Shown: positions 3,618-60,541, numbered from the stretch's first letter. The stretch: 64,000 nucleotides of DNA from an uncultured Acidimicrobiia bacterium (GCA_963753185.1 CAVWBO010000007.1:1610914-1674913), one strand, 5' to 3'. Translations and numbers: made by a program. The notes: generated by a model from the letters alone, not told the origin.

Positions 3618-4310
3618 TCATGTCCTCCGATCGATCGGCTGGGGGAGGACGGGCGCGATCACCGTGGTCGTATGGCGGGCTGCCGGTGTCCATGCGGCCA
3701 CACCGATGGCAAGGCCGGCAGATGCGATCGCGAGACCCGGCGCGCCCGTGGTCGCAAGGCCCGCGACCACGGCGGTGATCGGCGTTGCCGTCCTTAGCGT
3801 CCAGATCCCGATCCGATTCCCGCGCCCGTAGAGGATGGATCCGACCATGGTGATCCCTGCGAGGAACCAATGGTGCCAATCCGTTCCCGTGCCCATCAGA
3901 ACGAGGCCGAGGAACAGTGGTGCTGCGGCGCCCACGGCGATGAGGGCGACGGGGGTCGGTCCTGGGGCGTCGGCAATACGGTGGTGTCTCGTCCACAACG
4001 TGAGCCACGGTCCGAGAAGCCCGACGAGCGCCATCCCGCCGACGATGTACGCGGTCCATGTGAGAGGTGTGTCACCGACCGAGGACGTGCTCATCGCGAC
4101 AATCACGGTGCAGATCAGCACGACCCGTCCCCACGGTGCCCTCGCGAGGAGGAGTCCGGAGAGGCCCACCAACGAGGAGACGAGCAGCCCCGTGATGAGC
4201 ATCGGGACGGTGGAGCCTGCGATCGGGTCCGGTTCTACGGCGACGGCGAGGCACGCGACCACGACGGCGGCAAGGGCGACGGCGCCGATGATCAGGTGAG
4301 GTCGTGCCAC
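3618..4310 (-). CDS. hypothetical polytopic membrane protein
   Basis: 230 aa with about 6-7 predicted TM helices. It sits 8 nt downstream of the secreted-protein gene on the same strand. Confidence 0.45.
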   Translation of the reverse strand: MARPHLIIGAVALAAVVVACLAVAVEPDPIAGSTVPMLITGLLVSSLVGLSGLLLARAPWGRVVLICTVIVAMSTSSVGDTPLTWTAYIVGGMALVGLLGPWLTLWTRHHRIADAPGPTPVALIAVGAAAPLFLGLVLMGTGTDWHHWFLAGITMVGSILYGRGNRIGIWTLRTATPITAVVAGLATTGAPGLAIASAGLAIGVAAWTPAARHTTTVIAPVLPQPIDRRT

Positions 4311-12533: not shown

Positions 12534-12624
12534 CCGTCCCTCAACCGGCCGTCCCTCAACCGGCCGTCCCTCAACCGGCCGTCCCTCAACCGGCCGTCCC
12601 TCAACCGGCCGTCCGTCAACCGGT
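12534..12624. repeat. tandem direct repeat, 15-bp unit (GCCGTCCCTCAACCG) x6, the last copy with one substitution
   Basis: Read directly from the sequence: ccgtccctcaaccgg repeated head-to-tail. It lies between the convergent 3' ends of the 11507..12463 and 12616..13131 genes. Confidence 0.9.
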
Positions 12625-13131
12625 GGGGGCGATCAGCTCCACCACGACGTTCCGACGCTCGTCGATCTCGGGCTCTGCAACCGACGGTGCGACGGGATGC
12701 TCCGCCTGTCCGGACAACCCGAAGGCCTCGCGGTATTCGGCGACCTTCGCAACCACAGCACGGACAACGAGCCTCGTGTGGTCGTCGTTGCCGTTCCTGA
12801 GGGTCTCGAGGTCGTCATCGTCGGTGGAAATGACGGTTGCACCCGCACGCCGGATGTCGACCAGCATGATCTCCTGGAGCATCTTGTCGGGTGAGAGGGA
12901 ATCGAGCCGTGCAATCACCACGGCATCGGCCGATCCGGATCGCACGAGCTCGAGGAGGGCCCGGAAGCCGGGACGGTCGAGCGGTGCCGCAGATGCGTGG
13001 TGATCCTGGCAGATGGCGACGATGTCGTTACCCGTGTCGAGCGCCCAACGACGAATGCGCTCACTCTGGGCGAACGCGGTGTCCGACTGTCCGCGCCCGG
13101 GTGCCTCCCGGACGTACCCGACGATTTTCAT
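12616..13131 (-). CDS. serine-recombinase (resolvase) N-terminal-domain-like protein, catalytic Ser apparently replaced; no HTH domain
   Basis: MKIVGYVREA...RPGFRALLELVRSGSADAVVIARLDSLSPD parallels the resolvase pattern GYARVS...RPGL..LL.....GD.LVV..LDRLGRS. The nucleophilic Ser and the LDRLGR arginines are not conserved. Confidence 0.45.
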   Translation of the reverse strand: MKIVGYVREAPGRGQSDTAFAQSERIRRWALDTGNDIVAICQDHHASAAPLDRPGFRALLELVRSGSADAVVIARLDSLSPDKMLQEIMLVDIRRAGATVISTDDDDLETLRNGNDDHTRLVVRAVVAKVAEYREAFGLSGQAEHPVAPSVAEPEIDERRNVVVELIAPTG

Positions 13132-13283
13132 GATGCCTTCCTAGGATCGATCGCAGTATCCCAGAGCTGCGATGCGTGGTCAATCACCAGCGTTGCGTGG
13201 TCGCAAGGCGGGGAGGCGGACCCGAGGCACTCGACCGGTCCGTCGGGAACCGCCACATCGATCCATTGCTACGATACCGGGCC

Positions 13284-13772
13284 GTGGCAAGGACGCTCGT
13301 GCTGAACGCAAGCAATGAGCCGCTTTCGGTGGTTCCCGCTCGACGCGGCGTCGTGCTCGTACTCGCAGGGACCGCCGACCTCGTCGCCCATCGAGGCGAG
13401 GTTTGGAGATCAGGGCGGATCTCGGTCGACGTGCCGAGCGTCGTGCGGCTCCGCCGCTACGTGTCGGTGCCCCACGCGAGGGCCATTCCGCTCAATCGGC
13501 GGGCGATCTTCGCTCGCGACGAACACCGCTGCCAATACTGCGGCGGATCTGCCGAGAACGTCGATCACGTGATTCCGCGGGTGCTCGGCGGCACGCACCG
13601 CTGGGACAACGTCGTCGCGGCTTGTCGCCGATGCAACACCCGAAAGGGAGGGCGCACCCCGACCGAGGCAGGTCTCCAGCTGAGGCGCCAACCCACCAAA
13701 CCGGGGCGATTCGATTGGGTGCACGTCGCGGCAGGCGATGCCCTCGATGCGGCGTGGCGACCCTTCCTGTGA
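13284..13772 (+). CDS. HNH endonuclease
   Basis: HNH motif CQYCGG...DHVIPRVLGG...NVVAACRRCNTRKG. The N-terminus (RTLVLNASNEPL) matches the conserved actinobacterial HNH family. The start was taken at GTG 13284. Confidence 0.7.
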   Translation: MARTLVLNASNEPLSVVPARRGVVLVLAGTADLVAHRGEVWRSGRISVDVPSVVRLRRYVSVPHARAIPLNRRAIFARDEHRCQYCGGSAENVDHVIPRVLGGTHRWDNVVAACRRCNTRKGGRTPTEAGLQLRRQPTKPGRFDWVHVAAGDALDAAWRPFL

Positions 13773-28739: not shown

Positions 28740-29837
28740 ATGACGAGGGATACAGCCAAGGCGCCGAGCACCTACTTGGCCGTCATCAAGGTGGTCGGTG
28801 TCGGAGGCGGAGGCGTCAACGCCGTCAATCGCATGATCGACATGGGAGTCGGTGGGGTCGAGTTCATCGCGGTGAACACCGACGCCCAGGCCCTCCTCAT
28901 GTCCGATGCCGATGTCAAGCTCGACATAGGGCGTGACTCCACGCGCGGTCTCGGAGCGGGGGCCAACCCCGAGGTCGGTCGCGAGGCCGCAGAGGACCAC
29001 AGGGACGAGATCGAGGATGCCCTCGGAGGGTCCGACATGGTCTTCATCACGGCCGGTGAGGGTGGGGGGACCGGCACCGGTGCAGCTCCCGTCGTCGCGG
29101 AGGTTGCTCGATCCCTCGGCGCACTTACCGTCGGCGTCGTCACACGGCCCTTCGGCTTCGAGGGCCGCCGCCGCTCCGTCCAGGCGGAGCAGGGAATCCA
29201 AGCCCTCAAGGCAGCGGTCGACACGCTGATCATCATTCCGAACGAGCGCCTCCTCGAGATCGCGGACCAGAACACTCCCGTCGTCGACGCCTTTCGGATG
29301 GCGGATGAGGTCCTCACGGCAGGGGTCAAGGGGATAACCGAGCTCATCACGACCCCGGGGCTGATCAACGTCGACTTCGCCGACGTGAAGACGGTGATGT
29401 CCGACGCGGGCTCAGCGGTGATGGGGATCGGTGTCGCAACGGGTGACAGTCGGGCCCTTCAGGCGGCCGAGAAGGCGATCTCGAGTCCACTACTCGAAAC
29501 CTCGATGGAGGGCGCACGGGGTGTGCTCTTGTCGATCGCTGGACCCAGGGACATGACCCTGCACGAGGTCAACACGGCCGCATCACTCATCAGCGAACAC
29601 TCCGACGCCGATGCGAACATCATCTTCGGATCGGTGATCGACGAGACGCTCGGTGATGAGATGCGGGTCACGGTCATCGCGGCCGGGTTCGACAGGGACC
29701 GACGGGGAAGCTTCACGCCGTCGCTCCCCGGCACGACGGCGCCACCTCGCCAACGGTCGTCGCTGCTCGATCAGGGTCGCGACGACGGACCTGATGGAAC
29801 CGACGAGATGGACATCCCCGGATTCGTTCAGGGATGA
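28740..29837 (+). CDS. ftsZ: cell division GTPase FtsZ
   Basis: Tubulin signature [20 protein letters not shown] motif, and a disordered C-terminal tail. A GGGAGAGG SD precedes the start. The alternative GTG is at 28731. Confidence 0.9.
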
Positions 29838-30458
29838 TCCGATCGGAGGCGATCCGAACGGTCGCGTTCGGCACCCTCGCCGACGGCGACGGACGCACAG
29901 ACCCTGACGCGCGAAGTCGGATGAGCGCAACCCTCGGTATCCCCGACGCTTGGGCGACGATCACGCAGGTCCACGGCGCAACCGCGCGCCGCGCGATGGA
30001 GGCTTCCCCGCTCGGGGAGGCCGACGGGGTATGGACACCTGAACGGGATCTCCCGATCGTCGTGGCGACGGCAGACTGCGTTCCGGTGGCGATCGAGGCA
30101 GGCGGTGCCATCGGCCTTGTCCATGCGGGCTGGCGCGGCGTGGTGGCTGGCATCGTGACAGCGACGATCGAGGCAATGGTGGATGAGGGGCAGGAACCGG
30201 CACGCGGCAGTCCTGGGACCCCACATCGGGCCTTGCTGCTACGAGGTAGGTACCGAGGTCATCGAAGCCGTCGGGGGCCATGAATCACGAACCATGTGGG
30301 GGACGGTGAGTCTCGATCTCGCGGGGGCGATTCGCGAGCAGCTGGTGGACATTCCAGTCGAGGAGGTAGCGATCTGCACACGTGAGGACGGTCGTTTCTC
30401 ATCACATCGACGCAACGGCACCAGCCATCGACAGGTGACGGTGGCGTGGCGGTCGTAG
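29834..30458 (+). pseudogene. pgeF: pgeF/yfiH (DUF152 purine nucleoside phosphorylase/laccase-like), frameshifted around 30185-30210
   Basis: The N-terminal half (HAGWRG motif) is in one frame (29834..30283). The C-terminal half, with the IGPCCYEVG motif, is in the +1 frame (30183..30458). The frame switch occurs near a GGGG run. Confidence 0.7.
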
Positions 30459-31113
30459 GGCTCGATGCCGTGCTGGACCGGATTGCACGGGCATGCGCAC
30501 GTCGCGGTGTGGGGAGCGACGGCATCACACTCGTGGTCGTGTCGAAGCATCGCACGGACGAGGAGGTTCTCGCGGTGTACGAATGCGGCCAGCGCGTGTT
30601 CGCAGAGAATCGCGCACAGGAGCTCGCGCGCGACGCGACGCCGACCTCCCCGATGACATCGAATGGCACTTCGTTGGGCCCCTGCAGAGCCGGAAGGCGG
30701 CATCGGTCGGCGGGAACGCAGCGCTCCTGCAGTCGATGGACAGGCTGAAACTCGCTCGGATCTGGCGGGACCACTCCATCGACACACCGGTCCTGGTGCA
30801 GTTCAACCTGGCGGGAGAGCCGCAGAAGTCTGGGTTCCCGCCCGACGAGCCGGGTCGGGTCCTCGATGATCTCGTCACGCTCGGCCTCGATGTGAGGGGC
30901 GTGATGGCGATTCCTCCGAACGCCACCGATCCCGAGTCGGCGCGACCGTGGTTCGCCCGGCTCCGGGAGATTTTCGACCTCTACCGGAGGGACCTGCCGA
31001 CGATCGACACCTGTTCGATGGGTATGTCGAACGACCTCGAGGTCGCGATCGAGGAGGGTGCCACCATGGTGCGCATCGGACGGGCTATCTTTGACAGGAC
31101 AGCCGACACCTGA
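30446..31113 (+). pseudogene. yggS: PLP-homeostasis protein YggS (alanine-racemase-fold), frameshifted around 30631-30645
   Basis: The N-terminus (VVSKHRTDEEVLAVYECGQRVFAENRAQEL) is in frame 30446..30748. The rest (IEWHFVGPLQSRK...) is in frame 30493..31113. The shift lies in a gcgcgcgacgcgacgccgac repeat. Confidence 0.7.
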
Positions 31114-31135
31114 GACGACCTACGGGACGGTACGC

Positions 31136-31726
31136 ATGGCATCTCTGTGGAACAAGACGCTCTTCTACCTGGGTCTCATGGATGAGGACGCCCCGAGCGA
31201 CGAGGCCCGCGACCAGTCCGTCGGTGACGTACGCCCGATGGGAGCTGAACGACCAGGGACCCCGCCACCCGGGCAGATGTCGACGGTTCGCCCCCCGGGG
31301 AGTGGTGTCGCAGGACGCCGTGTCGAGCCTCCCGCATCGACCCGCCGCCAGATGTCGGGTGACCCCGGCCACGCGGAGGCAGGCGTGTACATCCACTCGA
31401 ACGTGTCATCCATCGGCGGGACGGACATGCCCATGCGGAGGACGGAACCGGAGTCCCAGATCATCGCCGCTCGGAACTTCTCGGACGCCCAGGCCCTCGC
31501 AGATGCGATCCGATCGGGCAGGAGCGTCGTCCTGGACCTTCGCGGCACCGAACCAGAGATGGTGAGGCGACTCGTCGACTTCGCCTCCGGCCTGACATAC
31601 GCGCTCGACGGGAAGATGTCGAAGACCTCGCAGGGCGTGATCCTCGTGACCCCGGGCGGTGTCAGCATCGGGATGGCTGAGCAGGAGCGGCTCTCCGCGC
31701 TCGGACTCTACGGATCAGCGAACTGA
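31136..31726 (+). CDS. sepF: cell division protein SepF
   Basis: MASLWNKTLFYLGLMDED N-terminus and a C-terminal DUF552 domain (VVLDLRGTEPEMVRRLVDFASGLTYALDGKM). Confidence 0.85.
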   Translation: MASLWNKTLFYLGLMDEDAPSDEARDQSVGDVRPMGAERPGTPPPGQMSTVRPPGSGVAGRRVEPPASTRRQMSGDPGHAEAGVYIHSNVSSIGGTDMPMRRTEPESQIIAARNFSDAQALADAIRSGRSVVLDLRGTEPEMVRRLVDFASGLTYALDGKMSKTSQGVILVTPGGVSIGMAEQERLSALGLYGSAN

Positions 31727-31727
31727 G

Positions 31728-31994
31728 GTGGGGATCCTTCGCACGCTGGTCCAGTTCGTTTCGCTCGCCCTTCTCGTGTGGATCGTGTTGTCCTACATCG
31801 TGGTGTTCGGGCGCATCCCGTTCGACCATCCGATCCGTCGGCTCTACGAGCTGCTGTCGCGCATGATCGAGCCGATCCTGCGTCCGATCAGGGCAGTCGT
31901 GCCTCCGGTGCGTGTCGGGGGAGCGGCACTCGACCTCTCGCCGCTGATCCTGATCTTCGGGCTCCAGATACTCGCTGCCGTGCTTCCACGCTGA
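31728..31994 (+). CDS. yggT: YggT-family membrane protein
   Basis: GTG immediately after the sepF stop. 88 aa with two TM helices; YggT pattern (ILSYIVVFGRIP...LLSRMIEPILRPIR). Confidence 0.75.
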   Translation: MGILRTLVQFVSLALLVWIVLSYIVVFGRIPFDHPIRRLYELLSRMIEPILRPIRAVVPPVRVGGAALDLSPLILIFGLQILAAVLPR

Positions 31995-31998
31995 AGGA

Positions 31999-34900
31999 TC
32001 ACGATTCCGTCGGCGCCTTGCTCACGGTGACGGTCATCGACGATCCGGCCAGCTCCACCAGGTCGCCGTCGGTCGCATCCCGCTCGATACGGACCGCAAG
32101 GACCTCGGATGCGATGAGGTCGGCGTGGAGCCCGAAGCATGCGACCACGTCGTCGTCGTCGGAGTCCCACCGGACGACGATCCGATCGACAACGTCGAGG
32201 CCCAGGTCGCGGCGCGCTGCCTGGAGCCTGTTGACGACTTCGCGTGCAAGGCCCTCGATGCGCAGATCATCGTCGAGCCGCGTGTCGAGGGCCACGGACA
32301 GGGAGCCCTCCGTCGCGACGACGGTGCCTTCTCGAGCTGTGCGGCTGATCACGAGGTCGTCTGCCACGAGACCGAAGCCGGTCACGGCTTCCGGTACCCC
32401 GTCGAGGATCGAACTCAGGGTCGCCTGGTCCAGCCCTGCGATCGCGTCGGCGACCGTGCCCATGAGTTTTCCGAATCGCGGCCCGAGGACCCTGAAGTTG
32501 GGTTTGGCCTCGAGGTCGACCAGGCCTGCCTCGTCGGCGTGGACTTCGACGGAATGGACGTTGAGCTCCTCGGCGATGAGCTCGGCATGGCTCGATATCG
32601 CCGCGCCCTCTGATGCCGACCTCGTCACCACCGTGACGAGGCGCAGGGGCTGGCGGGTCCGTATGCCCTCGCGCTTGCGTAGGCCGCGTCCGAGATTGAC
32701 GACGGTTCGCACCGTCGACATGGCGGCCTCGAGGCCGGGGTCGATCGATGAAGGCACCGCCTCGGGGTAGTCGGTGTGGTGGATGCTCCCCGGAGCGTCC
32801 GCGTTGATGGATCGAACGAGCCCTTGGTAGATCTCCTCCGTCACGAACGGCAGCACGGGTGCGGCCACGGAGGCGAACGTCGTGAGCACCTCGTACAGCG
32901 TCGCGAAGGCCGAGAGCTTGTCGGCGTCGTCCTCGATGCCGCGATGAGTCCAGAACCGGCGTCGGCTCCTGCGGATGTACCAGTTGGTGAGATGCTCCAC
33001 GAACCCGATCACCCGAGGGATGACGGCGTAGAGCCGATACGCCTCCATCTCCCTGTTGACATCGGAGATCAGGCTCTGGATCATCGAAACGATCCATCGA
33101 TCGATCTCGGGACGATCGTCGAGTGGGGGAGCGCCTTTGAGGTCCTGTGCGGTCAGACCGTCCGCCGCTGCGTATGTGGTGAAGAACGAGTACGAGTTCC
33201 ACAGCGGCAGGAGGACCGTGCGAACGACCTCTCGAACCCCAGCCTCGGAGAACCTGAGGGGCTCACCCCGCACGACGGGAGAGTTGATCAGATAGGCGCG
33301 AAGGGCGTCTGCCCCGAACTCGTCGAGCACATGGGAGGGATCCGGGTAGTTGCGGAGGGACTTCGACATCTTCCTGCCGTCCTCCGCGAGGATCATCCCT
33401 GTCACCACACAGTTCTGGAACGGGGCCTCGTCACGGATCGCAGTCGACAACACGAGCAGGGTGTAGAACCAGCCGCGCGTCTGGTCGAGCCCCTCGGCGA
33501 TGAAGTCCGCAGGGAATCGCTGCTCGAAGCGTTCGAGGTTCTCGAACGGATAATGGATCTGGGCGAACGGCATGGATCCGCTCTCGAACCAACAGTCGAG
33601 CACCTCGGGAACCCTGCGCATCGTTCCCGCGCATTCGTCGCAGGTCCACGTGATGGCATCGACGAAGTGTTTGTGCAGATCCTCGAGGCGCGTACCAGAG
33701 AGCTCAGCCAGTTGGTCGCGCGACGACACGGCCCTCATGTGCCCTCCCTCGTCGCACTCCCAAACAGGGATGGCCGAACCCCAGTATCGGTTGCGGCTGA
33801 TCGCCCAGTCCCTTGCGCCCTCGAGCCAGTTCCCGAATCGGTTCGCGCCGATCGCCTCGGGTATCCATCGGATTCCCTTGTTGATCTCGACCATGCGATC
33901 CCTGAACTGCTCGACTGCGACGAACCATGTAGGGATGGCCTTGTAGATCAGTGGTGTTCCCGTCCGCCAGCAGAACGGGTACGAGTGGTTGATGGTTGCC
34001 CGAGCAAAGAGCGCACCGGATTCTGCGAGAAGCGCCATCAGGGTTGCATCGGCCTCCTTGACGTTCATTCCCGAAACGTCAGGCACCTCGTCCGTGAAGC
34101 GGGCCTCCTCATCGACCGGATCCACCAGAACGTCGATCCCTGCCTCACCGAGGGCACGGAAGTCCGCTTCACCGTATGCCGGAGCCATGTGGACGAGGCC
34201 CGTACCCTCGTCTGTGGTCACATCGTTCGAGTGGATCACGACGAATGCACCGTCGGCCGCCCTCTCCGAGAAGTAGGGGAACGGCGGCCGATAGCGGGTG
34301 CCGATCAGGTCCGACCCCATCGCCGTACCGAGAACTTCGGCATCCTCGCCGAAGATCCGCTCGACGAGGTCTGTTGCCGACCAGTAGACGTGTTGTCCGG
34401 ATCGGATCCGTGTGTATTCGACGTTCGACCCGACGGCGATCGCCAGGTTTGCAGGGACGGTCCACGGGGTCGTCGTCCAGAACAGCAACCGATCGCCTGA
34501 GGTGACGGGACCATGTCCGTCGAGGACCTCCACGGCGACGGTGATGGCGGGATCGTCCACATCGCGGTAGTCCAGGTTCGCTTCGAAGTTCGACAGCGGC
34601 GTCGTCGCACCGTACGAGTACGGGAGAACCTTGAAGTCCCGATAGACGAGACCTCGATCCCACAGCTGTCCGAAGACCCACCAGACGCTTTCCATGAAGT
34701 CGACGTCCATCGTCTTGTAGTCGTTCTCGAAGTCGACCCACCGTCCGATGCGCCCTGTGATCTCGTACCAGTCCTCGGTCGTCGTATTGACCATCGCTCG
34801 GCACGCCTCGTTGAAAACGTCGATTCCGAGCGCCTGGATCTGGCGTGGACCCGAGACACCGAGTTGCTTTTCGACCTCCATCTCGACGGGGAGGCCGTGC

Positions 34901-43860: not shown

Positions 43861-44910
43861 TCAGGACTCGGCGATGAGACCCATCACACCGCTCTCAGCG
43901 ATCATCGCTGCGAGGTCCTCGACCGTGGTCGGTGGTGGTGAGCGCCACGCAATGGTCGAAACGGGGACGTCGTACAGAGCGGCGAGTTCGTCGACAGCAT
44001 CGGACTGGCGTCGTGCCTCCGATGCCCATGCCGCCAGATTGGTCCTGACCGCGACGCGCAGGTCGGGATCATCGATCCCACGCAACGGTCGCTGGGCATC
44101 CTCGGTCCAGACGCTCGGCAGGGCCCGGTTGAACACGATGATCGCGGGTTCGATGCGGATGTCCCCGAGCTCGCGGAAGAAGCGATGGGTCTCGTGCAGG
44201 GGGGTCGGGTCTGCCGTCGTCGCAATCACGGTGGTCGCCGCCCGTAGGTAGCGCTCGATCGTCCTCGATCGCGACGAGAGGGCGTCGTACATCGTCCGGA
44301 GGTCGAGCAGGAAATCCGCGACGTCCGAGAGCATCGGACCTCCGAGGATCGTGTCGGCGATGCGAAGCATCGGCTTCGCGGTGAACCGGTAGAGGATGCT
44401 GCGTCCGGGGAGGTGCGATCCCGTGAGCCACTTGAGGAGTTTCCCGGAGATGAGGTCTCCTGTTGTCGCCGGAGCACGGAAGAAGTCGATGCCGCCGCCG
44501 GACGGCGGTGTATCTACGACGATCACGTCGTACGATCGGGACTCGATGTACTCGGCAGTTCGCTCGCCCGCGGCGTACGCCTGGGCCGCAGGGAACCGAT
44601 CGGCGATCGCCCGGAAGTAGGGGTTGACGAGGAGCCGATCTCCCACGTCGGGGTCCGCGTATCGGTGGATGATCGCCTCCCAACTGGCGGACACGTCGAG
44701 CATCGCAGCCGACATGCCTTCGACCATCGTCACGGGGGTGGGCTCGTCGCCGAGCGTCGAAACCCCGAGCGCGTCTGCCAGCCGTTTCGCGGGATCGATG
44801 GTCAGCACCAGCGTCTTGAGTCCTGCTCCTGCGAGCGCCACGCCCAACGCGGCGGACAGTGTCGTCTTGCCGACTCCGCCCGCGCCGGTCACGACGATCG
44901 TTCGTGTCAT
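43861..44910 (-). CDS. ArsA/GET3-like anion-transporting ATPase family protein
   Basis: P-loop VVTGAGGVGKTT. Its start is paired by a 4-nt overlap with the upstream ATPase gene. Confidence 0.7.
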   Translation of the reverse strand: MTRTIVVTGAGGVGKTTLSAALGVALAGAGLKTLVLTIDPAKRLADALGVSTLGDEPTPVTMVEGMSAAMLDVSASWEAIIHRYADPDVGDRLLVNPYFRAIADRFPAAQAYAAGERTAEYIESRSYDVIVVDTPPSGGGIDFFRAPATTGDLISGKLLKWLTGSHLPGRSILYRFTAKPMLRIADTILGGPMLSDVADFLLDLRTMYDALSSRSRTIERYLRAATTVIATTADPTPLHETHRFFRELGDIRIEPAIIVFNRALPSVWTEDAQRPLRGIDDPDLRVAVRTNLAAWASEARRQSDAVDELAALYDVPVSTIAWRSPPPTTVEDLAAMIAESGVMGLIAES

Positions 44911-45770
44911 CGCGGCTCCTCGATCGCATCTGCGAGCTGGACGGCGACCTCGCCGGGCGTGAGCACCCCTCGCAGGAAGGGCAGCTCGAGGTCGTGGTCG
45001 ATCTCGCGCGCCCAGAGATCCTGCTCGAGCTCCATCGACACCTGGAGAGTCGCCGCGTCTCGCGCCGAGCCTGCGGGCAGCCCGTCGAGGTCCGACGCTG
45101 CGATCCCGCTCGCTTCGAGCCAGCGGTTGAGGATGACCATCGGCGGCGGGCAGACGTTGTCTGCGAGCAGCGACTCGATCGATTCGACCGTCTCACGCAC
45201 GGGAAGCTCGGACGGCGTGCACACGAACACGACCTTGGTCACCGACGGATCCTCGAGCGTCCTGGCGAGCCTGTCCGCCTGCCTCCTCACATTTCCACCG
45301 GGAACGAGCTCTGCGATCGTCGTGGGTGCGCGCAGGTACGACTGGAACTGCCCGAGTGAAGGTGCGTCCACCACCACGGCGTCCCAAACGTCGCGCCACG
45401 CCTCGTAGACCGGCTTTCCGATGCTGATGATCTCTCGGACGCCGGGTGCCGTGTCCGCCAGAACGGAGAGGGCTCCGGCGATCTGCCTCGTCGGAGCGCC
45501 CTGGGGCAGCCTCAGCTGGAGTTTGAGGTACTCGTCGAGCCCGGTCGCCCTGTCCATGACCATCGCGAAGAGGCCTGGCCTGGTCTCGACCGGCCGGTAG
45601 CGGAGGTCGGCACGGCGGAGGTGCGCGGCGAGGCCCGTGCTCTGGCCCATGTCGATCGCGAGGACCCGCTGACCCCTGCGTGCCCGTTCAATGGCGATCG
45701 CTGCGGATACGGCCGACTTCCCTGTGCCACCCTTGCCTGAAACGAAGACGAGATCGCACGTGGTCATCAC
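44907..45770 (-). CDS. ArsA/ParA-like P-loop ATPase (partner of the downstream ATPase)
   Basis: Deviant Walker A motif VSGKGGTGKS. Confidence 0.7.
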   Translation of the reverse strand: MMTTCDLVFVSGKGGTGKSAVSAAIAIERARRGQRVLAIDMGQSTGLAAHLRRADLRYRPVETRPGLFAMVMDRATGLDEYLKLQLRLPQGAPTRQIAGALSVLADTAPGVREIISIGKPVYEAWRDVWDAVVVDAPSLGQFQSYLRAPTTIAELVPGGNVRRQADRLARTLEDPSVTKVVFVCTPSELPVRETVESIESLLADNVCPPPMVILNRWLEASGIAASDLDGLPAGSARDAATLQVSMELEQDLWAREIDHDLELPFLRGVLTPGEVAVQLADAIEEPR

Positions 45771-45844
45771 GCCGAGGCTAGTTCTCGTGGTCGGAGTGTT
45801 CGCCTACGCTTGGGCGATGTAGCCGGAATGGGCAAGGAGACATC

Positions 45845-46057
45845 GTGGCGCAACTGGACATGGACGACTTCCTCAGGCGATTCGCCGAGCGGGCCGAGGC
45901 CGTCAAGGAACGTGGCGTACCGCCCCTCGAGGGTCAGGCCCGCAAAGCGTTCATCGATTCGGCCGAGAAGGATTTCCTCGACTACTCGTTGATCGCCTCC
46001 GCATCGTGGACGGTCGACGACGGCCACCTGGTGCTGAGGATCCCGCTCTCAGGCTGA
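45845..46057 (+). CDS. small hypothetical protein
   Basis: 70 aa, acidic, with no TM segment. Its 3' end overlaps the convergent 556-aa gene by about 9 nt. Confidence 0.35.
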   Translation: MAQLDMDDFLRRFAERAEAVKERGVPPLEGQARKAFIDSAEKDFLDYSLIASASWTVDDGHLVLRIPLSG

Positions 46058-47719
46058 GGGATCGTCGATCCCGAGATCTGCCCGCCTGGCGGCTGCCCTC
46101 CGTTCGGTTTCGATGCGGGCGAGGTCGTAGTCCTCGTGGTCGACGAAGGTCATTGCATCGGCGATCCTGCGGTGGCCTGCGACGTCACGGATCTGGTCGT
46201 GCATGATCTGGCAGACCCGCCGGTAGTCCGGGTGGCCACCCTGCTGGGTTCGCAGTTCGAGCATGTGGAACGCCTCGCGTGCATTCAGGTTCATCGCGAA
46301 CCGGATGTTGAACGCAAAGGGGATGGCATATTGTGCAACCGAGCTCGACGTGCGGGACGAGAGCGCTGCGTGGTACTCCGCGAGGTCATCCATGGCGCCG
46401 TCCCACTCCGACTCGGCCCCGATGTCGATGACCGATTGCGGAGTGATGTAACCGTGGTCGACGCCGAGGTCCTGCCACTCGATGGTGAGCATCCGGTGGC
46501 GCTGCAGGTCGCGGAAGATCCCGTAGTCGCACAGGATGTCGAAGCGATAGAAGGTCTGCTCCATCGCGCGGCCGGGTTTGTGGCGTCGATTGGTGCGGGT
46601 CCCGATGTACGCACCGAAGATCTCATCGATCTCGGACTCAGACATCGCGTCGACGATCCCTCGAATCTGGGCTTCGGGGAGGTTGGATGCGCCGTACAGG
46701 GCGGCTGCCGCGACCTTGCGCTCCCCGTCACGGTCGTAGTCGACGAGTGTCACGGCAGGAGCCCGTTGGGTGTCAGACGACAGCCGTGCTGCCAATACCT
46801 CCATCGCGCGGCGATTGTCCGACAAGTACTCTGTCCATGCGCCGCCCCTGTCGGGGACATCGACACGCTTCATGAAGGATGGGATCATCGTGCGCAGCTC
46901 ACGAAGCATCTCGGTTCCGCACCACTGCACCTCCTCGAGTGGATGGGCTGCCATGCGCAGGAGGAGGGACTCGTAGGCCTGACCTGACGCGAATACGCCG
47001 ACGTTCGAGAGGGTCGCGGCAGGCAGGAGGCCCCGTGCGTCGTCGCACGCCTTCGCCCTGATGGTCGACCTCCACACGAAGGACGAGTCGCCATCCTGGC
47101 GGGGATAGAGCTCCTCGTAGTAGGTGACGAGCCTGCCCACGATCGCGCTGTAGGTCTCGAAGAGTCCGTCCATCGTCGTCGTGTACTCGTCCGCGAGGCC
47201 TGCGCCGGCGATCTCGGAAGGGACCACGTACCGAAAGCGACCACCGAGTCGGGTGTCGTAGAAGATGTAGCGCGTCGATTGCTCGAGGTACGACGCGAGG
47301 CGCCCCCACTCGAGCACCTTCGTGAGGATGTTCGATGCCTGTTCGACGGCGACGTGGGCGGCGCCGAGCTGCGCTACCGAGTCGTCCCCGTACTGGGTGA
47401 AGACCCTGTCGTAGAGCTGCTCGGCGCGTTCGAGCCCGACGGTGTCACTGTCGGACCTTGCTGTCGCGATGTGTCGGATTCCGAGGTCCGGGTCGGCAGC
47501 GAACTCATCGAGGAACAGTCGCCGGACCGACTTGTCCGACCTGCTGTAGCGTGCGAAGAGTGCCCCTTTGACGACCTCCGGGAGGTTCCGTATCCCGAAC
47601 ACCGGACGATCGAGATTCGTGAAGAACGGTTCGAGGGTCGCTCGCTCGCCATCGGTGAACGTCTCGATGTGGAAGGGTGGGGGAGTGGGTGTCACGTCCT
47701 GGTCTCCTGGGTGAGGCAC
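46049..47719 (-). CDS. hypothetical 556-aa protein (possible tandem ThyX/Thy1-like RHR-motif domains)
   Basis: Long ORF with a good start context. It contains FRDLQRHRML and ARYSRSDKS segments reminiscent of the flavin-dependent thymidylate synthase RHR signature, but the downstream S..S.RY part is not evident. Confidence 0.35.
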   Translation of the reverse strand: MPHPGDQDVTPTPPPFHIETFTDGERATLEPFFTNLDRPVFGIRNLPEVVKGALFARYSRSDKSVRRLFLDEFAADPDLGIRHIATARSDSDTVGLERAEQLYDRVFTQYGDDSVAQLGAAHVAVEQASNILTKVLEWGRLASYLEQSTRYIFYDTRLGGRFRYVVPSEIAGAGLADEYTTTMDGLFETYSAIVGRLVTYYEELYPRQDGDSSFVWRSTIRAKACDDARGLLPAATLSNVGVFASGQAYESLLLRMAAHPLEEVQWCGTEMLRELRTMIPSFMKRVDVPDRGGAWTEYLSDNRRAMEVLAARLSSDTQRAPAVTLVDYDRDGERKVAAAALYGASNLPEAQIRGIVDAMSESEIDEIFGAYIGTRTNRRHKPGRAMEQTFYRFDILCDYGIFRDLQRHRMLTIEWQDLGVDHGYITPQSVIDIGAESEWDGAMDDLAEYHAALSSRTSSSVAQYAIPFAFNIRFAMNLNAREAFHMLELRTQQGGHPDYRRVCQIMHDQIRDVAGHRRIADAMTFVDHEDYDLARIETERRAAARRADLGIDDPSA

Positions 47720-47773
47720 CGTACACCCAGCGGGGGGTCCTCTTCAATTCCGCCGCCTCGGTAGCCTCGCTCC

Positions 47774-51072: not shown

Positions 51073-52240
51073 GGACCAGGAGCATCGAAACGACGAGTCC
51101 CGCGCCGAGCCCCGACACCGTCGCGGCGAGCCCGATCGTGTCGATGAGCCACGCACCGATGCCGAAGCCGGCGATGCTTCCGACGATTGCCGCGTTCGTG
51201 ACCCATGCGTTCGCCGTTGCGCGAACCCTTGTCGGGAAGAGCTCCGATCGATGCGCTCCGAACGACGGGGTCAGCATCGTGGCTCCGAGCGTCGCGAGGA
51301 ATATCGAGGCGGCGAGGAACCACCCGGAGTCGAGTGCGTAGAACCCGACTCCTCCCACGAGCCCGATCGCGAGTGCTGCAACGGACGTCGGTCGGCGTCC
51401 GTACCGATCGGCAGCCCGACCTCCGACGAGGAGCCCGACTGCCCCGACTCCGGAGAAGACGATGAGGAGGAATCGAGCGGCGCCGGTATCCCAATCGAGG
51501 TCGTTGATCAGCCGTTCGAGAACGAAGTCGAACGCCGGGGATGAGAATGCAGCGACGAAGAACGAGATCCCCGCGAGCGGCCAGAAGTGCTTGGAGAGGC
51601 CCATGTCGAGCGCCTTCACGAACGCGATCCGGGGTCCCGGTGTGAACGCGCGGCTCTCCGGGAGGTACCGCGAGAGCATCGGGAGGAACAGGAGGCCGAG
51701 CGCCGCAAGCCCGAACAGGACACGCCACGCATTGTCGTTTCGCTCTGCGATCGGCAACAGGATGAGGCCGAGGCCGACACCCATCGAACCGGCGAGCCCC
51801 AGAACGCCGATGCCGAGTGCTCGGACGCCTGGCTGGAGTTCCTCCGCTATCAGGACGAGCGTCAAGGCAGCCAACGCGACGACGGCGAGCCGAACGATGG
51901 CCTGCGAGACAACGTACGCGGGAACCGATGGTATCAGTGCGGTTGCGAGGCTTCCGAAGAGCAGGAGTGCGAATGCCGCCAGGATCGGTCGTTTGCGTCC
52001 GTGGGTGTCGGCGGACATCGCGAAGAGCACGCCGAGAAGTGACACTGCCCTGACGATCGCGAACACGGCACTCATCTGACCTTCCGTGAGGTCGAGAGCG
52101 GTACGTGCAAACGGCAGGGTGTGGGGCATCTGGCTGCCCGCGTAGCCTGCCACGAATCCCATGATCGACGTGAGGAACAGGATGCGCCTGTCCCCACTCG
52201 AGAACGCGGTCAACTGTCGAGTTGAGTTCGGGAGACCCAT
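50984..52240 (-). CDS. MFS transporter
   Basis: 12 TM, with the MFS loop motif ADRYGRRP. Its 3' end overlaps the MATE gene 3' end by 89 nt (convergent). Confidence 0.7.
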   Translation of the reverse strand: MGLPNSTRQLTAFSSGDRRILFLTSIMGFVAGYAGSQMPHTLPFARTALDLTEGQMSAVFAIVRAVSLLGVLFAMSADTHGRKRPILAAFALLLFGSLATALIPSVPAYVVSQAIVRLAVVALAALTLVLIAEELQPGVRALGIGVLGLAGSMGVGLGLILLPIAERNDNAWRVLFGLAALGLLFLPMLSRYLPESRAFTPGPRIAFVKALDMGLSKHFWPLAGISFFVAAFSSPAFDFVLERLINDLDWDTGAARFLLIVFSGVGAVGLLVGGRAADRYGRRPTSVAALAIGLVGGVGFYALDSGWFLAASIFLATLGATMLTPSFGAHRSELFPTRVRATANAWVTNAAIVGSIAGFGIGAWLIDTIGLAATVSGLGAGLVVSMLLVLRLPETRGMDLVRRPVATRGATPRTPPAG

Positions 52241-52405
52241 CGTGCCTTCGTCGACGACGGCGGTGAGGATAGTGGCGTTCGGCCCGGGGAGGCATCGACC
52301 AGATGCGACCCCGAGCTCTGTCCTGGTTCATTGCCATCGTGTGAAGTGGGAACATCAGCGACCCCCGTACCGTTGACCATCCGACGATCCCGGACCAGGG
52401 CAACC

Positions 52406-53152
52406 ATGGAAGTGTCACTCCTAGCAGCAGTCTTCGCCGGAGCGGCGTCGTTCCTCTCACCGTGTGTGCTTCCGCTCCTTCCCGGATACGTCTCCCTCAT
52501 GTCGGGCTACGACATGGCAGAGCTCGCCGAGGGCAACGTGTCGATGGGCAGGGTCGTCGGCCGGACAGCGCTCTTCGTCGGAGGCTTCAGCGCCGTGTTC
52601 ATCGCCCTCGGTGCGACGGCGACGTCCCTCTCGGGGTTCCTCAACCAGTCGATCTTCACGGTGATCGCCGGGTGGTTGATCGTCGCCATGGGTTTGTTCA
52701 TCGCCACGACCGCGGTGTGGACGCCCTCGTGGCTGCTGCCCGTGATGAAGGACCGTCGCATCGAGTCGTCGGGAGCGCGAAGGCTCGGCCTGTTCGGCCC
52801 TCCCGTGATGGGGGCGGCGTTCGCATTTGGATGGACGCCGTGCATCGGGCCGTTCCTGGCGACCGCCTTGCTGCTGGGTGCGAACGGCGACACGGTCACC
52901 GATGGCATGATCGTCCTCGCCTTCTACAGCCTCGGCCTCGGAATACCGTTCCTGCTCACCTCGCTTCTCCTGGCCAAGGCGTTCTCGGCGTTCGCCTGGG
53001 TCAAGCGATACCTCACCCAGATCACGGTGGTGTCAGGTCTGATGCTGGCGTTCTTCGGCGTCCTGCTCATCACGGGACGGATCACCGACCTGTCCGCCTG
53101 GTTCTCGGATCTGCTCATCCGCATCGGCCTCGAGGACCTCGCCGAGATCTGA
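52406..53152 (+). CDS. ccdA: cytochrome c-type biogenesis / thiol-disulfide transmembrane protein CcdA (DsbD-like)
   Basis: SPCVLPLLPGYVS and a second TPCIGP cysteine motif; 6 TM. Confidence 0.8.
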   Translation: MEVSLLAAVFAGAASFLSPCVLPLLPGYVSLMSGYDMAELAEGNVSMGRVVGRTALFVGGFSAVFIALGATATSLSGFLNQSIFTVIAGWLIVAMGLFIATTAVWTPSWLLPVMKDRRIESSGARRLGLFGPPVMGAAFAFGWTPCIGPFLATALLLGANGDTVTDGMIVLAFYSLGLGIPFLLTSLLLAKAFSAFAWVKRYLTQITVVSGLMLAFFGVLLITGRITDLSAWFSDLLIRIGLEDLAEI

Positions 53153-53182
53153 TCCCGCTCGGACCCGGTACCCTCGCCACCC

Positions 53183-54697
53183 ATGCGACCGACGCTCAGC
53201 CTCGACGAGTTCCTGCTGTTGGCTCGCGATCACTCCGTCGTTCCGATCGGTGTGGAGATCATGGCCGACTCGCTGACACCTGTTTCGGCGTATCGGGCGC
53301 TCGCCGGTGCCGGTGACGGTTTCCTCCTCGAGTCGGTGGAGGGGGGGAGCGCTGGGGACGGTGGTCGTTCATCGGATGGTGCCCCGCCTTCACGATCACG
53401 ACGACGCGAGGCGTCACATCCATCGATCACCCCGACGTGGCTGTACCGGATGGGGATCCCCTCGACGTGCTCGCCGCGATCACGGACCGCTATGTCGTGC
53501 CAGACGACTCGGACCTCGGATTCCCCTCCGAGGTTCCTCCCCTCCACAGCGGCGCAGTGGGCTTTCTGTCCTACGACATCGTGCGCCACATCGAACGTCT
53601 GGACAATCAGCCCCCCGATGACCGCAACCTGCCAGAGATGGTGTGGCACATGGTCGGGAAGCTCGCCGCGTTCGACCGCGTGCGCGACTCGATCCTCGTG
53701 ATCGTCAACGTCTTCGTCGGGGACGATCCGTCCACGCAGTATGCGGATGCAGTCGGATCCATCGCCTCGACCATCGAGATCCTCTCGACCTCGACGCCCA
53801 TCGAGGCACTCGAGCGCCCCCGATTCGACGGCGTCCCGAACTCGACGAGCAACATGACGAGGGAGGACTTCGAGGGGGCTGTCCGTGTGGCGATCGACCA
53901 CATCCGGGCTGGCGATGCGTTCCAGATCGTCCCGTCGATCCGATTCGAAGCCACCCTTGGCGGGGATCCACTCGCCCTGTACCGCGCATTGCGGATCGTC
54001 AATCCGTCGCCGTTCATGTTTCTCGTTCGCTCCGGCGAGCTCGCGATCGTCGGCTCGTCCCCGGAGTTGATGTCGCGGGTCCGAAACGGAAGGGTCTACT
54101 CGCGGCCGATCGCCGGCACGAGGCCACGCGGGGAGACGGCGGATGAGGATCTCGCACTCGAACAGCAGCTTCTCGCCGACCCCAAGGAGCGAGCGGAACA
54201 CGTGATGCTCATCGATCTCGCCCGCAACGACCTCGGCAGGGTGTGCGTCTTCGGGACGGTGCAGGTCGATGACCTCATGGTCGTCGAGCGATACTCACAC
54301 GTCATGCACATCGTGTCCGGCGTCTCGGGGGATCTCGTCGAGGGGACGAGCCCTGTCGACGTCCTGCGCGCGACCTTCCCGCACGGAACGGTCTCCGGCG
54401 CCCCGAAGGTCCAGCGCGATGGAGATCATCGACACCCTCGAACCGACGGCGCGCGGTCCCTATGCGGGGGCCGTCGGCTACATCGACTTCTCCGGGAACC
54501 TCGACACGGCGATCGGTCTCCGAACCTGTGTCGTGCGCGGCTCCACGGCGTGGGTCCAGGCGGGCGCCGGCGTCGTCGCAGATTCCGATCCTGCTACCGA
54601 GTACGAGGAGTGCGTCGCAAAGGCTCGTGCCGTCCTCGCTGCCATCGAAGCCGCCCGCCATCTCGGCGGATCGATCCCCGCGGAGGACGAGCGGTGA
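53183..54697 (+). pseudogene. trpE: anthranilate synthase component I, interrupted by two frameshifts (about 53341-53347 and about 54410-54418)
   Basis: Three consecutive pieces in different frames: the N-terminus (53183 frame) up to LLESVEGG; the middle (ERWGRWSFIGW...GTVSGAPKV); and the C-terminus ([33 protein letters not shown], 54269 frame). The first shift lies in a G7 homopolymer. Confidence 0.8.
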
Positions 54698-56073
54698 CGT
54701 TCCTCGACCAGATCCTGAGATCCGCCGACGTCCGAGCCGAGGGTGCTCGGCGCGACATCGAGCACTTCCACGCGAGATCCACCGACGCACCTTCGCAGCG
54801 CAGCCTCGCTGAGGCGCTCGTCGCGGACGGGCTTTCGGTCATCGCGGAGATCAAGCGGCGCTCACCATCCGCCGGCGACATCGATGCATCACTCGATCCT
54901 GTGTCGCTCGCCCTCGCATACGAGGCAGGCGGGGCGGCGGCGATCTCGGTTCTCACAGAGCCCCACTTCTTCGGAGGGTCGCTCGACGATCTGGTGGACG
55001 TGCGCGCTGCAGTCTCGATTCCGGTGCTGCGCAAGGACTTCACAAGGGATCCCGCACAGGTCTGGGAGGCCAGGGCGGCAGGGGCAGACGCCGTTCTGCT
55101 GATCGTCGCTGCGCTTGACGACCGTGACCTGCACGCATGCCTCGCGGCCGCGCACGATGCCGGGGTTGACGCCGTGGTGGAGGTTCACACCCTCGTGGAG
55201 GTCGCACGTGCGGTCGCGGTCGGCGCCGGAATCATTGGCGTCAACAACCGTGACCTTCAGAGCTTCACCACGGACCTCACCGTTGCCGAGACCGTCTCGA
55301 TGGCGATCCCGGACGGCGTGGTGCGAATCGCCGAGTCCGGGGTGTCGTCTGCCGAAGGAGCTCGAAGAATGGCAACGGCGGGCTACGACGCGATCCTCGT
55401 CGGTGAGGCTCTCGTTCGTCACGGCGATCCAGCCTCGTTCGTGAACGACGCTGAGGGGCCTGCCATGACGTGGGTCAAGATCTGCGGGATCACCACGCCT
55501 GAGGCGATCCGGTCGGCAGAGGATGCAGGCGCCGATGCCCTCGGCTTCGTGCTCGCCCCGGGTTCGGTCAGGACCCTGTCCGTCGAGGCTGCGCGCCCCC
55601 TGGTGGGTTCGGCATCGATCTCGACCTATGCCGTGGTCGTCGACCTCACACCCGACGAAGCACTCCATGTCGCCGACACGATCGGGGTGACCGGCATCCA
55701 GGCCCACGGGCTCCACGCTCTGGAAACCGCTCGATCCGCCGCCGAGGCAGGCTTCGAGGTGTTGTGCCCGATTCCGGTCGGCCAAGGCGGGCCCACCGTC
55801 GATCCCGCGGCCGTGGTGTCCGAAGCGGTGGTCCTGTTCGATACCGCCCGACGCAGCGGTCACGGGGGATCGGGCACGCCATTTGTGTGGGGCACCATCG
55901 CCGACATCGAGCGTCCCTACGTGGTGGCAGGGGGCCTAGGGCCCGACAATGTCCGGGAGGTGATCGAGCAACTCGATCCCTTCGGTGTCGATGCGTCGAG
56001 CCGTCTCGAGACCATTCCGGGCATCAAGGATCCCGATACCATCAGGGCCTTCGTCGAGGAGGCCAAACGATGA
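54694..56073 (+). CDS. trpC: bifunctional indole-3-glycerol-phosphate synthase / phosphoribosylanthranilate isomerase (TrpC-TrpF fusion)
   Basis: GTG overlapping the trpE stop. The IGPS domain ([15 protein letters not shown]...VLRKDF...GVNNRDL) is followed, without a stop, by the PRAI domain ([10 protein letters not shown]...GFVLAPGS...). Confidence 0.8.
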
Positions 56074-58080: not shown

Positions 58081-58141
58081 ACCTTCAGTTCGCAGTGCGG
58101 CGTCTGCCGATGGAACCTCATGGACATGACGCGTCGCGCCG

Positions 58142-58224
58142 TACCGGGAGTGGGACTCGAACCCACACGAGCTTTCGCCCAACGGATTTTGAGTCCGCCG
58201 CGTCTACCATTCCGCCATCCCGGC
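58142..58224 (-). tRNA. tRNA-Leu (anticodon CAA), CCA not encoded
   Basis: Hand-folded: acceptor GCCGGGA/TCCCGGT, D-arm GCGGAATGGTAGACGC, anticodon loop CTCAAAA, a long variable arm, and T-arm GTGGGTTCGAGTCCCAC. Confidence 0.75.
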
Positions 58225-58403
58225 TCGGTGGAGAGCACGATGGTAGGGGCGAGCGACCCATTGACGTTGCGTCCTTCGTGTGTGAATCATCGAGGAGCCA
58301 GAGGGTGTCGCACGGTGGGGACGTCGCAGGAAGCAGGAGAGAATGTCAGTGACACAATGTGGTCGGTGTGCTACTCTCTGCAAGAATTCGAGCTGAGGGG
58401 CCG

Positions 58404-59000
58404 ATGAGGATGTTCACACGCCGAAGGAACGAGACCAACGAACGCGGAGTAGCCATGGTGGAGCTGGCGTTGGTGCTCCCCCTGTTCATCCTGCTCATCT
58501 TCGGGCTCATCGAGTTCGGGCTTCTCTTCCGCGAGCGCCTGACGATCGCCTCTGCGGTCTCGTCTGCGGCGAGGACGGGTGCGACGATGGGACAGAATGA
58601 CGAGGCCGATTATCGGATCCTCCAGGCCCTCGAGGCAGGTCTCTACGATCAGGTCGACGCCTCCGTCCTCATCAGCGTCGAGATCTTCAAGGCCAATCCC
58701 GTCACCGGCGCCAAGGCGGGCCCCGTCGACCGATACATCTACGATGGGAGCCTCGTGGGGTGCAAGTGGAGTCCATGCCCCGACCCCAGCCTTGCGGTGA
58801 TTCCCTACGGCAGCCCCGCAACGTACCCACCGAGCGCGCGGGACACGACCCTCGATCCCCTCGGTGGCGGTCTCGATGTCCTCGGTGTCGAGGTCGTGTA
58901 CCAGCACTCGACGGCCACGAACCTCATGCCCATGCTCGATTTGCAGTTGACCGAACGAGCCCTCGTCCGCCTCGAGCCTGACGTTTTCGGAGCGCCGTGA
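58404..59000 (+). CDS. TadE-like pilus assembly/pseudopilin protein
   Basis: N-terminal TadE motif ERGVAMVELALVLPLFILLIFGLIEFG. A GAGGGG SD precedes the ATG. Confidence 0.65.
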   Translation: MRMFTRRRNETNERGVAMVELALVLPLFILLIFGLIEFGLLFRERLTIASAVSSAARTGATMGQNDEADYRILQALEAGLYDQVDASVLISVEIFKANPVTGAKAGPVDRYIYDGSLVGCKWSPCPDPSLAVIPYGSPATYPPSARDTTLDPLGGGLDVLGVEVVYQHSTATNLMPMLDLQLTERALVRLEPDVFGAP

Positions 59001-60541
59001 TGCGACGGGTCGTCGACCGACTCCACGAGATCAGGAGGGAGCAGTCCGGCGTCGTTCTCATCCTCGTCGCCGTGCTCCTTCCGGTCTTCATGGGCATGGT
59101 CGGATTCGGCGTGGACTTCGGATGGCTGTACTGGAACGGCGTGAAGATCCAGCACGGTGCGGACGCAGCTGCACTGGCCGGTGTGATCTACGAGCCGGAC
59201 GACCAGACGTTGGCCTACTCCTCGGCCCACCAGGCAGCGGCAGAGAACGGCTACAACGGTCTCAACGCTGGAACCACGGTCGTTCCCGTCGACTACTCGG
59301 ATGATCCGACTGCAGTGAACAACCCGAACCAACTCCGGGTCACGGTGACCCACGCCGTCCCGACGTTCTTCATGAAGGTCTTCGGTATCGATTCGATCGA
59401 CATCACGAAGACGGCCCTTGCGGAGTACGTCCTGCCGCTTCCCCTCGGCAGTCCCGAGCGCCGCTTTGGCAACGACCCTGCGACGGGCCATGCACCGGAG
59501 TTTTGGGGCAACATCCACGGGTACTACACGGGCCGGAGCATGGGGGACAGATACTCGTCCCAATGCCTCAGCGGCGGAAGTGGATCAGGGTGCACCGCGA
59601 ACCCAGACAAGCGGCCAACCGTATGGGACGGTGCAACGCCCGGTACGATCAGCTCGACGACGGGCGGCTACATCTACGGTGTGGAGGTGGGACCGGGTCA
59701 GACGAACCTGTCGGTTGAGATCTTCGACGGTCCGTTCACCCGTGGTGGGGGAGACTTCATCCTCGTGGGCGACAACCCGCAGGGCTCGAGCCCCGGACCG
59801 ACGACCGTCTTCATCCTGTACGGCCCCGACCCGACACCACTCGACACCACCGATGCCAACGAGGTCCTGTGCACCGTTGTATATGCGCCTCGCGATGCGT
59901 ACATGCCGGGGGCGACCGCCGCGACGACTTGGGCCGATGTCGATGCCTTCCTCCCGGGAGGTGTGGCCTCGCTGTGGGATGAGATGTGCCCTGCGACGAA
60001 CCTCGACCGCGGTCCCGGCGTCTATCCACTCCGTGTCATCACCCTGGACAATGGCGAGCGTGGACTCAATCGTTGGTCGCTGAAGGCATCGGCCAGCGGT
60101 GGCAATCCGAGGATCTTCGGGCTCGGATCGATGGCGATCTACTCGAATGTCGACGGGGCGACCGGGGACACGGTCTTCTACCTCGCCGAGGTGGAGGCCG
60201 TGCACGCAGGTAAGGACCTGGTCATCTCCCTATGGGACCCGGGAGACGCATCCGGCAACCACTCCCTGCGGATCCGCAACCCCCAAGGTGGCCTCCCCTC
60301 GTGCACGTGGACGTCGACGAACCCTTCATATCCTGGCGGTTCACTCGGGTCATGTGACATCCCGACCAGTTCGAGTCGTTTCAACGACCACCTCGTGACG
60401 ATCCGGATCGACCTTCCAGACGACTACACGTGTGCCGCTGACTGTTGGTGGAAGATCGACTACAACTACCCGGGTCAGACGAACGACACGACGACGTGGG
60501 AAGCGCGGATCGAGGGCAACCCCGTGAAGCTGGTCGAGTAG
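58997..60541 (+). CDS. TadG-like (Tad N-terminal domain) protein with large Cys-containing C-terminal domain
   Basis: ATGA overlap with the tadE-like stop. N-terminal Tad domain VVLILVAVLLPVFMGMVGFGVDFGWLYWNGVKIQHGADAAALAG. The roughly 400-aa C-terminal domain, with several Cys pairs, is of unknown function. Confidence 0.6.
   Translation: MMRRVVDRLHEIRREQSGVVLILVAVLLPVFMGMVGFGVDFGWLYWNGVKIQHGADAAALAGVIYEPDDQTLAYSSAHQAAAENGYNGLNAGTTVVPVDYSDDPTAVNNPNQLRVTVTHAVPTFFMKVFGIDSIDITKTALAEYVLPLPLGSPERRFGNDPATGHAPEFWGNIHGYYTGRSMGDRYSSQCLSGGSGSGCTANPDKRPTVWDGATPGTISSTTGGYIYGVEVGPGQTNLSVEIFDGPFTRGGGDFILVGDNPQGSSPGPTTVFILYGPDPTPLDTTDANEVLCTVVYAPRDAYMPGATAATTWADVDAFLPGGVASLWDEMCPATNLDRGPGVYPLRVITLDNGERGLNRWSLKASASGGNPRIFGLGSMAIYSNVDGATGDTVFYLAEVEAVHAGKDLVISLWDPGDASGNHSLRIRNPQGGLPSCTWTSTNPSYPGGSLGSCDIPTSSSRFNDHLVTIRIDLPDDYTCAADCWWKIDYNYPGQTNDTTTWEARIEGNPVKLVE

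Follow-up and report, generated by a model that had tools for sequence, protein, structure and literature searches.

The window analysed here, a stretch of 64,000 nucleotides from an uncultured Acidimicrobiia bacterium (GCA_963753185.1, CAVWBO010000007.1:1610914-1674913; 65.4% G+C), carries a complete dcw cluster from mraZ to ftsZ, which is followed by pgeF, yggS, sepF, and yggT. According to the list of open reading frames (ORFs), both pgeF (29834-30458) and yggS (30446-31113) need two reading frames. The features of this region are as follows.

28740..29837, plus strand: ftsZ, the intact upstream neighbour (98.6% identity to the FtsZ of the sister species across 365 aa, without gaps)
29834..30205, plus strand: 5' segment of pgeF (YfiH family), matching PF02578 positions 31-140 and aligned with residues 1-124 of the sister PgeF
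30206..30207, plus strand: lesion A, a +1 insertion (GG against a single G in the intact sequence), from DNA alignment
30207..30458, plus strand: 3' segment of pgeF, in the frame of coordinate 30207, matching PF02578 positions 141-238
30446..30628, plus strand: 5' segment of yggS (PLP-binding COG0325 family), matching TIGR00044 positions 8-63, with the geometry of the sister yggS
30629..30630, plus strand: lesion B, net -1 (CG against the intact codon CTC, Leu), from DNA alignment
30631..31113, plus strand: 3' segment of yggS, matching TIGR00044 positions 72-227
31136-31726, plus strand: sepF, intact, downstream (Pfam SepF match; gap-free against the sister species)
31728-31994, plus strand: yggT, intact, downstream (Pfam YGGT match; gap-free against the sister species)

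The two pgeF ORFs (29834..30283 and 30183..30458) lie in different frames, and their matches to Pfam family PF02578 are exactly contiguous in profile positions, with 82.3 and 54.4 bits that both reach the gathering cut-off of 22.9. The 5' segment encodes ...QVHG..., ATADCVP, and HAGWRG ... EGQEPAR, and the frame of 29834 ends with ...HAGWRGVVAGIVTATIEAMVDEGQEPAR; the product of the 3' segment reads AVLGPHIGPCCYEVG ... FSSHRRNGT ... VAWRS, followed by a stop at 30458. Similarly, yggS is covered by ORFs 30446..30748 and 30493..31113, which match different parts of the NCBIfam profile TIGR00044. Its 5' segment starts with a GTG at 30446 that overlaps the pgeF stop and encodes ...VVSK...FAENRAQELA, while the 3' segment yields RRDADLPDDIEWHFVGPLQSRK ... 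RIGRAIFDRTADT and then a stop. A 125-aa YggS fragment (P0046), identical to that of the window, is a gene call on a contig of 2,700,352 bp that is presumably the source record. On the upstream side, the TGA stop of ftsZ overlaps the ATG of pgeF in an ATGA at 29834-29837. The split of both genes at these coordinates, which had been predicted from the sequence, is borne out by the ORFs and the contiguous profile coordinates, and the predicted translational coupling of the neighbours is visible in this ATGA and in the GTG overlap at pgeF/yggS.

In all relatives inspected, which comprised 14 GTDB loci per gene and four JGI loci of a sister species, pgeF and yggS follow ftsZ in the same gene order and are each encoded in a single frame. 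In one of the 14 GTDB loci (L010, for yggS), a run of N breaks the sequence, and the apparent frame change there was put down to that run. Loci anchored on FtsZ in GTDB species representatives, a set that does not include the source genome, assign the window to uncultured Acidimicrobiia, with a best FtsZ identity of 89%, to long-contig 'MFD' MAGs. Closer sister species (82-87% protein identity) have a 206-aa PgeF and a 221-aa YggS, and their junction peptides (...EGH[VA]PERAVLGPHIGPCC... in PgeF and ...AQELALRR.ADLPDDIEWHF... in YggS) show that the window has one base too many in pgeF and one too few in yggS. JGI metagenome contigs were also scanned twice with exact patterns that span the pgeF and yggS sites, and no match was obtained. 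Exact-product look-ups returned no record for the frameshifted fragments (149, 206, and 100 aa) or P0046, nor for FtsZ (365 aa) or MraZ.

A much closer sequence was provided by a protein search, which led to a 201-aa YggS (P0001) with 99% identity, encoded on a 1342-bp contig of a Logan assembly (run SRR25893897; contig L081). This contig aligns to window positions 29829-31170 with more than 99.7% identity, and the only differences are a G/C substitution at 30102, an extra window G at 30206, and TC against G at 30630, which amounts to two length changes and two base mismatches (at 30102 and at 30630, the latter within lesion B) in 1.3 kb. In L081, PgeF and YggS are both in frame and complete in length. 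An uninterrupted single frame in an independent assembly had been named beforehand as the observation that would mark the shifts as artefacts, and it was seen for both genes in this contig. The comparison with orthologues from close relatives, also proposed in advance, points the same way: neither shift is carried by any relative or independent assembly examined. The ratio of indels to substitutions between L081 and the window appears far from what natural divergence would produce in conserved coding DNA. With its one or two substitutions, L081 may come from a different or sister strain, in which case a strain-specific mutation may still be formally allowed.

Alignment of the DNA with the near-identical contig L081 and with the sister species located the lesions exactly and confirmed the prediction of one frameshift per gene. 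At lesion A, the window reads GCACGCGGCAG and the intact sequence GCACGCGCAG (local context GCACGCG[G]CAG), and the gap column is specific to the window in comparison with L081, L083, L001, and L002. The pgeF shift had been thought compatible with an extra G in a GGGG run; however, this run (30187-30190) is the same in the intact L081, and the actual lesion lies 16-19 nt downstream of it. At lesion B (30630), the window has GCTCGCGC-G-CGACG against the intact GCTCGCGC-TC-CGACG, and the intact product P0001 spans the site as AQELALRRDADLP. The slippage of a repeat that had been suggested for yggS was not found: the change is TC to G with no repeat unit lost, although the site does fall inside the GC-rich string in which slippage had been proposed. 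Neither lesion in the dcw genes is a homopolymer or repeat-slippage event. The two lie within 424 nt of each other.

A comparison over a larger part of the window was made by tblastn with 37 genes of the sister species, whose loci correspond to about 21.1-40.1 kb (L083) and 43.9-60.5 kb (L082) of the window. Against these approximately 36 kb, 34 of the 37 sister genes were single-frame and gap-free, and a frame switch was seen only in pgeF, yggS, and trpE. The stretches at 1-21 kb and 60.5-64 kb were checked by Pfam domain coverage. A codon-usage frame plot proved too noisy for the detection of frameshifts, and Pfam coverage and tblastn with the sister genes were used instead. One further candidate, a suspected frameshift near 3630 on the minus strand, was rejected as two genes, with a GGAGGA-GTG start. 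The original prediction had described the surrounding dcw genes as intact, and this holds from mraY through yggT, whereas the rest of the window is not clean: with the frameshifts in trpE, at least four one-base indels are present in the approximately 36 kb of checkable sequence. The features of the trp region are listed below.

53183..54697, plus strand: trpE in three frame segments (53183-53347, 53347-54412, and 54414-54697; frames 2, 1, and 2 in tblastn of the sister TrpE)
53341..53347, plus strand: lesion C, net -1, a G7 run one short of the eight bases required (sister sequence GGGGGGCG)
54413, plus strand: lesion D, net +1, an extra A (window GTCCAGCGCG against sister GTCC-GTGCG)
55453..55468, plus strand: trpC/trpF junction, in one frame without a stop in the window (GAGGGGCCTGCCATGA)

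In the three-frame translation of trpE, FLLESVEGG and ERWGRWSFIG join at the G7 run (53341-53347), and SGAPKV and (R)... join at 54413. The resulting 918-aa ORF (53317-56073) contains, in Pfam searches, a truncated chorismate-binding domain (profile positions 2-187 of 257) followed by the IGPS and PRAI domains, and the first 30 positions of the TrpE N-terminal domain lie in another frame than this ORF. After repair, TrpE (504 aa) is gap-free against 505-aa homologues and scores 519.1 bits with TIGR00564 (cut-off 517.7). The rest of the trp operon (trpB, trpA, and the trpC and trpF domains) is intact. The closest TrpE in the protein database had 90% identity, and no near-identical one was found there.

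Independent, same-strain evidence for trpE came from another Logan run, ERR15459714, in which the products of ccdA (52406-53152), sepF, and yggT of the window have exact matches. On a 2216-bp contig of this run, the gene that begins 31 nt after ccdA, corresponding to the trpE start, shows no stop in the 413 codons up to the end of the contig, whereas the same trpE frame in the window stops after 171 codons (ORF 53153..53698). This implies that the site-C frameshift is absent from that assembly; the evidence consists of gene coordinates only and concerns site C, and the contig ends approximately 8 nt past site D. The two contigs of the run correspond to window positions of about 52207-54421 (the contig that ends near site D) and 31037-33485, the second beginning inside yggS at about 31037. 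That contigs break so close to the lesions would be in keeping with heterogeneous reads that cause k-mer branching. A search of the literature found no mention of the run accessions SRR25893897 and ERR15459714.

In the sister species, trpC and trpF are separate genes with a GTGA overlap. In the window, one G fewer in the GGGG run of GAGGGGCC would be predicted to restore an ATGA-coupled stop. The single frame may represent either a real TrpCF fusion or a candidate fifth indel.

The condition of the genes after one-base repair was examined by profile and structure comparisons. Repaired YggS scores 152.1 bits against the TIGR00044 cut-off of 106.25, covers profile positions 8-227 of 229, and aligns over residues 6-217 with E. 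coli YggS (PDB 1W8G), including the lysine of the VSK motif. The YggS/YlmE/PLPBP family (COG0325) comprises PLP-homeostasis proteins (PMC9605639, PMC11619424), and the gene resembles its members in the full-length match above the curated cut-off, in the VSK motif, and in the classical ylmE place between ylmD and sepF, but differs from them in being split as deposited.

YfiH/PgeF is a peptidoglycan-editing hydrolase of UDP-MurNAc-monopeptide (PMC8844914, PMC12280929), with Cys107 and His124 as catalytic residues and Asp89 in the triad, in addition to His71, Trp127, and Arg128 (PMC8844914). Over residues 25-205, and thus through the join, repaired PgeF aligns with solved YfiH structures, and its QVHG, TADC, and HAGWRG motifs match His71, Cys107, and His124/Trp127/Arg128 of E. 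coli YfiH, respectively (compared with the 243-aa chain 1U05). The gene is similar to this family (DUF152, Pfam Cu-oxidase_4) in its profile match, in its place immediately behind ftsZ, where Gram-positive bacteria have ylmD, and, after repair, in these residue equivalents together with a C-terminal S-x-R-R motif. It departs from PgeF in that the repaired product reaches 115.7 bits, below the cut-off of 141.15 of the NCBIfam PgeF equivalog TIGR00726, and in that the NCBI name of the sister orthologues is only 'polyphenol oxidase family protein'; its activity is a prediction from sequence. Accordingly, the predicted identities of both genes stand at the family level by Pfam and NCBIfam, with membership of the YfiH/Cu-oxidase_4 family (PF02578) upheld for 'pgeF' and strict PgeF orthology not. 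No signs of decay were seen in the repaired genes, which have no extra stops and no further indels, encode full-length products without gaps against homologues, and retain their active-site residues, and the divergence of pgeF, yggS, and trpE from the sister species is like that of neighbouring genes.

Homopolymers are the classic error context of long reads, and it had been proposed to check whether other frameshifts in the assembly cluster in them. Other frameshifts were indeed found in the window, in trpE, but just one of the four lesions lies in a homopolymer (G7), the remaining three sites being of other composition. All four indels, when placed on the corrected sequence, fall within 2 nt of a GCGC (30206, 30630, 53341-53352, and 54413-54417). 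With 467 occurrences of GCGC in the window, 5.5% of positions are within that distance of one. The joint probability is 8.9e-6, or approximately 0.006 when corrected for 661 three- to five-mers, in a post hoc comparison based on four sites; the next-best motif was 27 times weaker. This adjacency accords better with an error of basecalling or consensus that is tied to a motif (methylation-type) than with four mutations that arose independently, and the signature may reflect HhaI-type cytosine methylation that disturbs long-read basecalling.

Indels in nanopore consensus sequences are a common cause of frameshifts in gene calls, and polishing is required for bins of low coverage (PMC9262707); the sources of error that have been named include methylation and high G+C (PMC11649196). 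The lesions described here are like such artefacts in MAGs and isolate assemblies (PMC9262707; PMC11649196) in that otherwise conserved genes are broken by one-base indels into neighbouring ORFs, a homopolymer is under-called at one of the four sites (G7 for eight bases), the G+C content is high, and an independent assembly lacks the lesions. They differ in that three of the four sites are outside homopolymers and all lie at GCGC, which would suggest a modification-linked class of error.

Taken together, the frameshifts in pgeF and yggS are very probably single-base consensus indel errors of the source assembly rather than features of the genome. The original prediction had left assembly error and recent inactivation side by side, and the former is favoured over the latter by the single frame of both genes in L081 and by the additional window-specific indels of trpE. 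The source is apparently a MAG of an uncultured Acidimicrobiia bacterium that was assembled from long reads, on one 2.7-Mb contig, and its reads were presumably of nanopore type, judging from the length of the contig and from the long-read MAGs that are its closest relatives. The errors would arise at a methylated GCGC motif and/or from low or strain-mixed coverage. The real genome most likely has intact copies of pgeF and yggS, translationally coupled within the conserved ftsZ-pgeF-yggS-sepF-yggT tail of the dcw cluster.

It is possible, if somewhat unlikely, that co-occurring strains were merged into a chimeric consensus, such that collapsed strain variation, and not motif-dependent basecalling error, led to local mis-consensus. 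The SNP-level differences from L081 show that strain variants exist, the end of the ERR15459714 contig approximately 8 nt from trpE site D is as expected at a k-mer branch, and the lesions cluster locally, all of which speak for such a chimera, but the GCGC adjacency of all four sites would be left unexplained. A chimera of this kind is a sub-type of the artefact explanation and is compatible with the preferred reading of consensus error.

A biological origin is improbable. It would mean a genuine and very recent loss of function in the sequenced strain or population. The genes pgeF, yggS, and trpE would then be pseudogenes of recent date, as could result, for instance, if the organism depended on its community and selection on its accessory or biosynthetic genes were relaxed. 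The four lesions form two tight pairs, for which we estimate roughly p = 0.01 under a uniform model, and this pairing also matches real pseudogenes that gain secondary lesions, pgeF with yggS and the two sites in trpE then being secondary hits in dead genes. PgeF and YggS are dispensable in model bacteria, and L081 could be a sister strain. However, the genes show no other decay, since they retain their catalytic residues and have diverged to a similar extent as their neighbours; the remainder of the trp operon is intact; and ERR15459714, whose proteins are identical to those of the window, has trpE open through site C. In addition, length changes about as numerous as substitutions, as seen against L081, are implausible in nature, the lesions are common to no related strain or lineage examined, and we know of no mutational basis that would link one-base indels to GCGC. 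It is very improbable that all four lesions are real and that the strain has very recently lost PgeF, YggS, and TrpE via a GCGC-associated indel process, which would imply incipient auxotrophy or gene decay together with an unknown motif-linked mutational mechanism. The genes might also be expressed in spite of the shifts, through transcriptional slippage or programmed ribosomal frameshifting; this would find some room in the tightly coupled operon and in the G7 run of trpE site C, which could in principle slip. Such recoding is excluded in practice, since all relatives are in frame, none having the shifted arrangement and all carrying the same junction peptides in one frame. A slippery heptamer or homopolymer is absent from sites A, B, and D, and an in-frame version exists in L081 at the near-identity given above.

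With consensus error as the preferred explanation, the main value of these findings is quality control. The genes pgeF, yggS, and trpE should not be scored here as pseudogenes or missing functions, for instance when auxotrophy or cell-wall editing is deduced, and the 918-aa 'trpE-trpC-trpF' ORF is an artefact. If the GCGC link holds genome-wide, it flags a methylation-linked class of error in this assembly and hints at an HhaI-type GCGC methyltransferase in the organism. Knowledge of PgeF or YggS themselves is unchanged.

Several other features of the window were observed. The dcw cluster is closely preceded by a small serine recombinase with a resolvase N-domain (12619-13140, minus strand) and an HNH endonuclease ORF (13134-13769, plus strand), which may be the remnant of a small mobile element (12619-13769); codon-usage coding scores are low in parts of 11.1-14.7 kb, and the G+C content there is not deviant. 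A single tRNA-Leu(CAA) (58141-58224, minus strand) is located between trpA and a TadE/TadG-like Flp-pilus gene pair (58353-60541). The ThyX ORF (46052-47743, minus strand) is twice as long as usual, at approximately 548-564 aa, and contains two stretches that match Thy1; the length of 548 aa is conserved in the sister species. At 43864-45803 (minus strand), a pair of neighbouring ArsA/ParA-like ATPase genes overlaps by a few bases, and both genes are intact and likewise conserved in the sister species.
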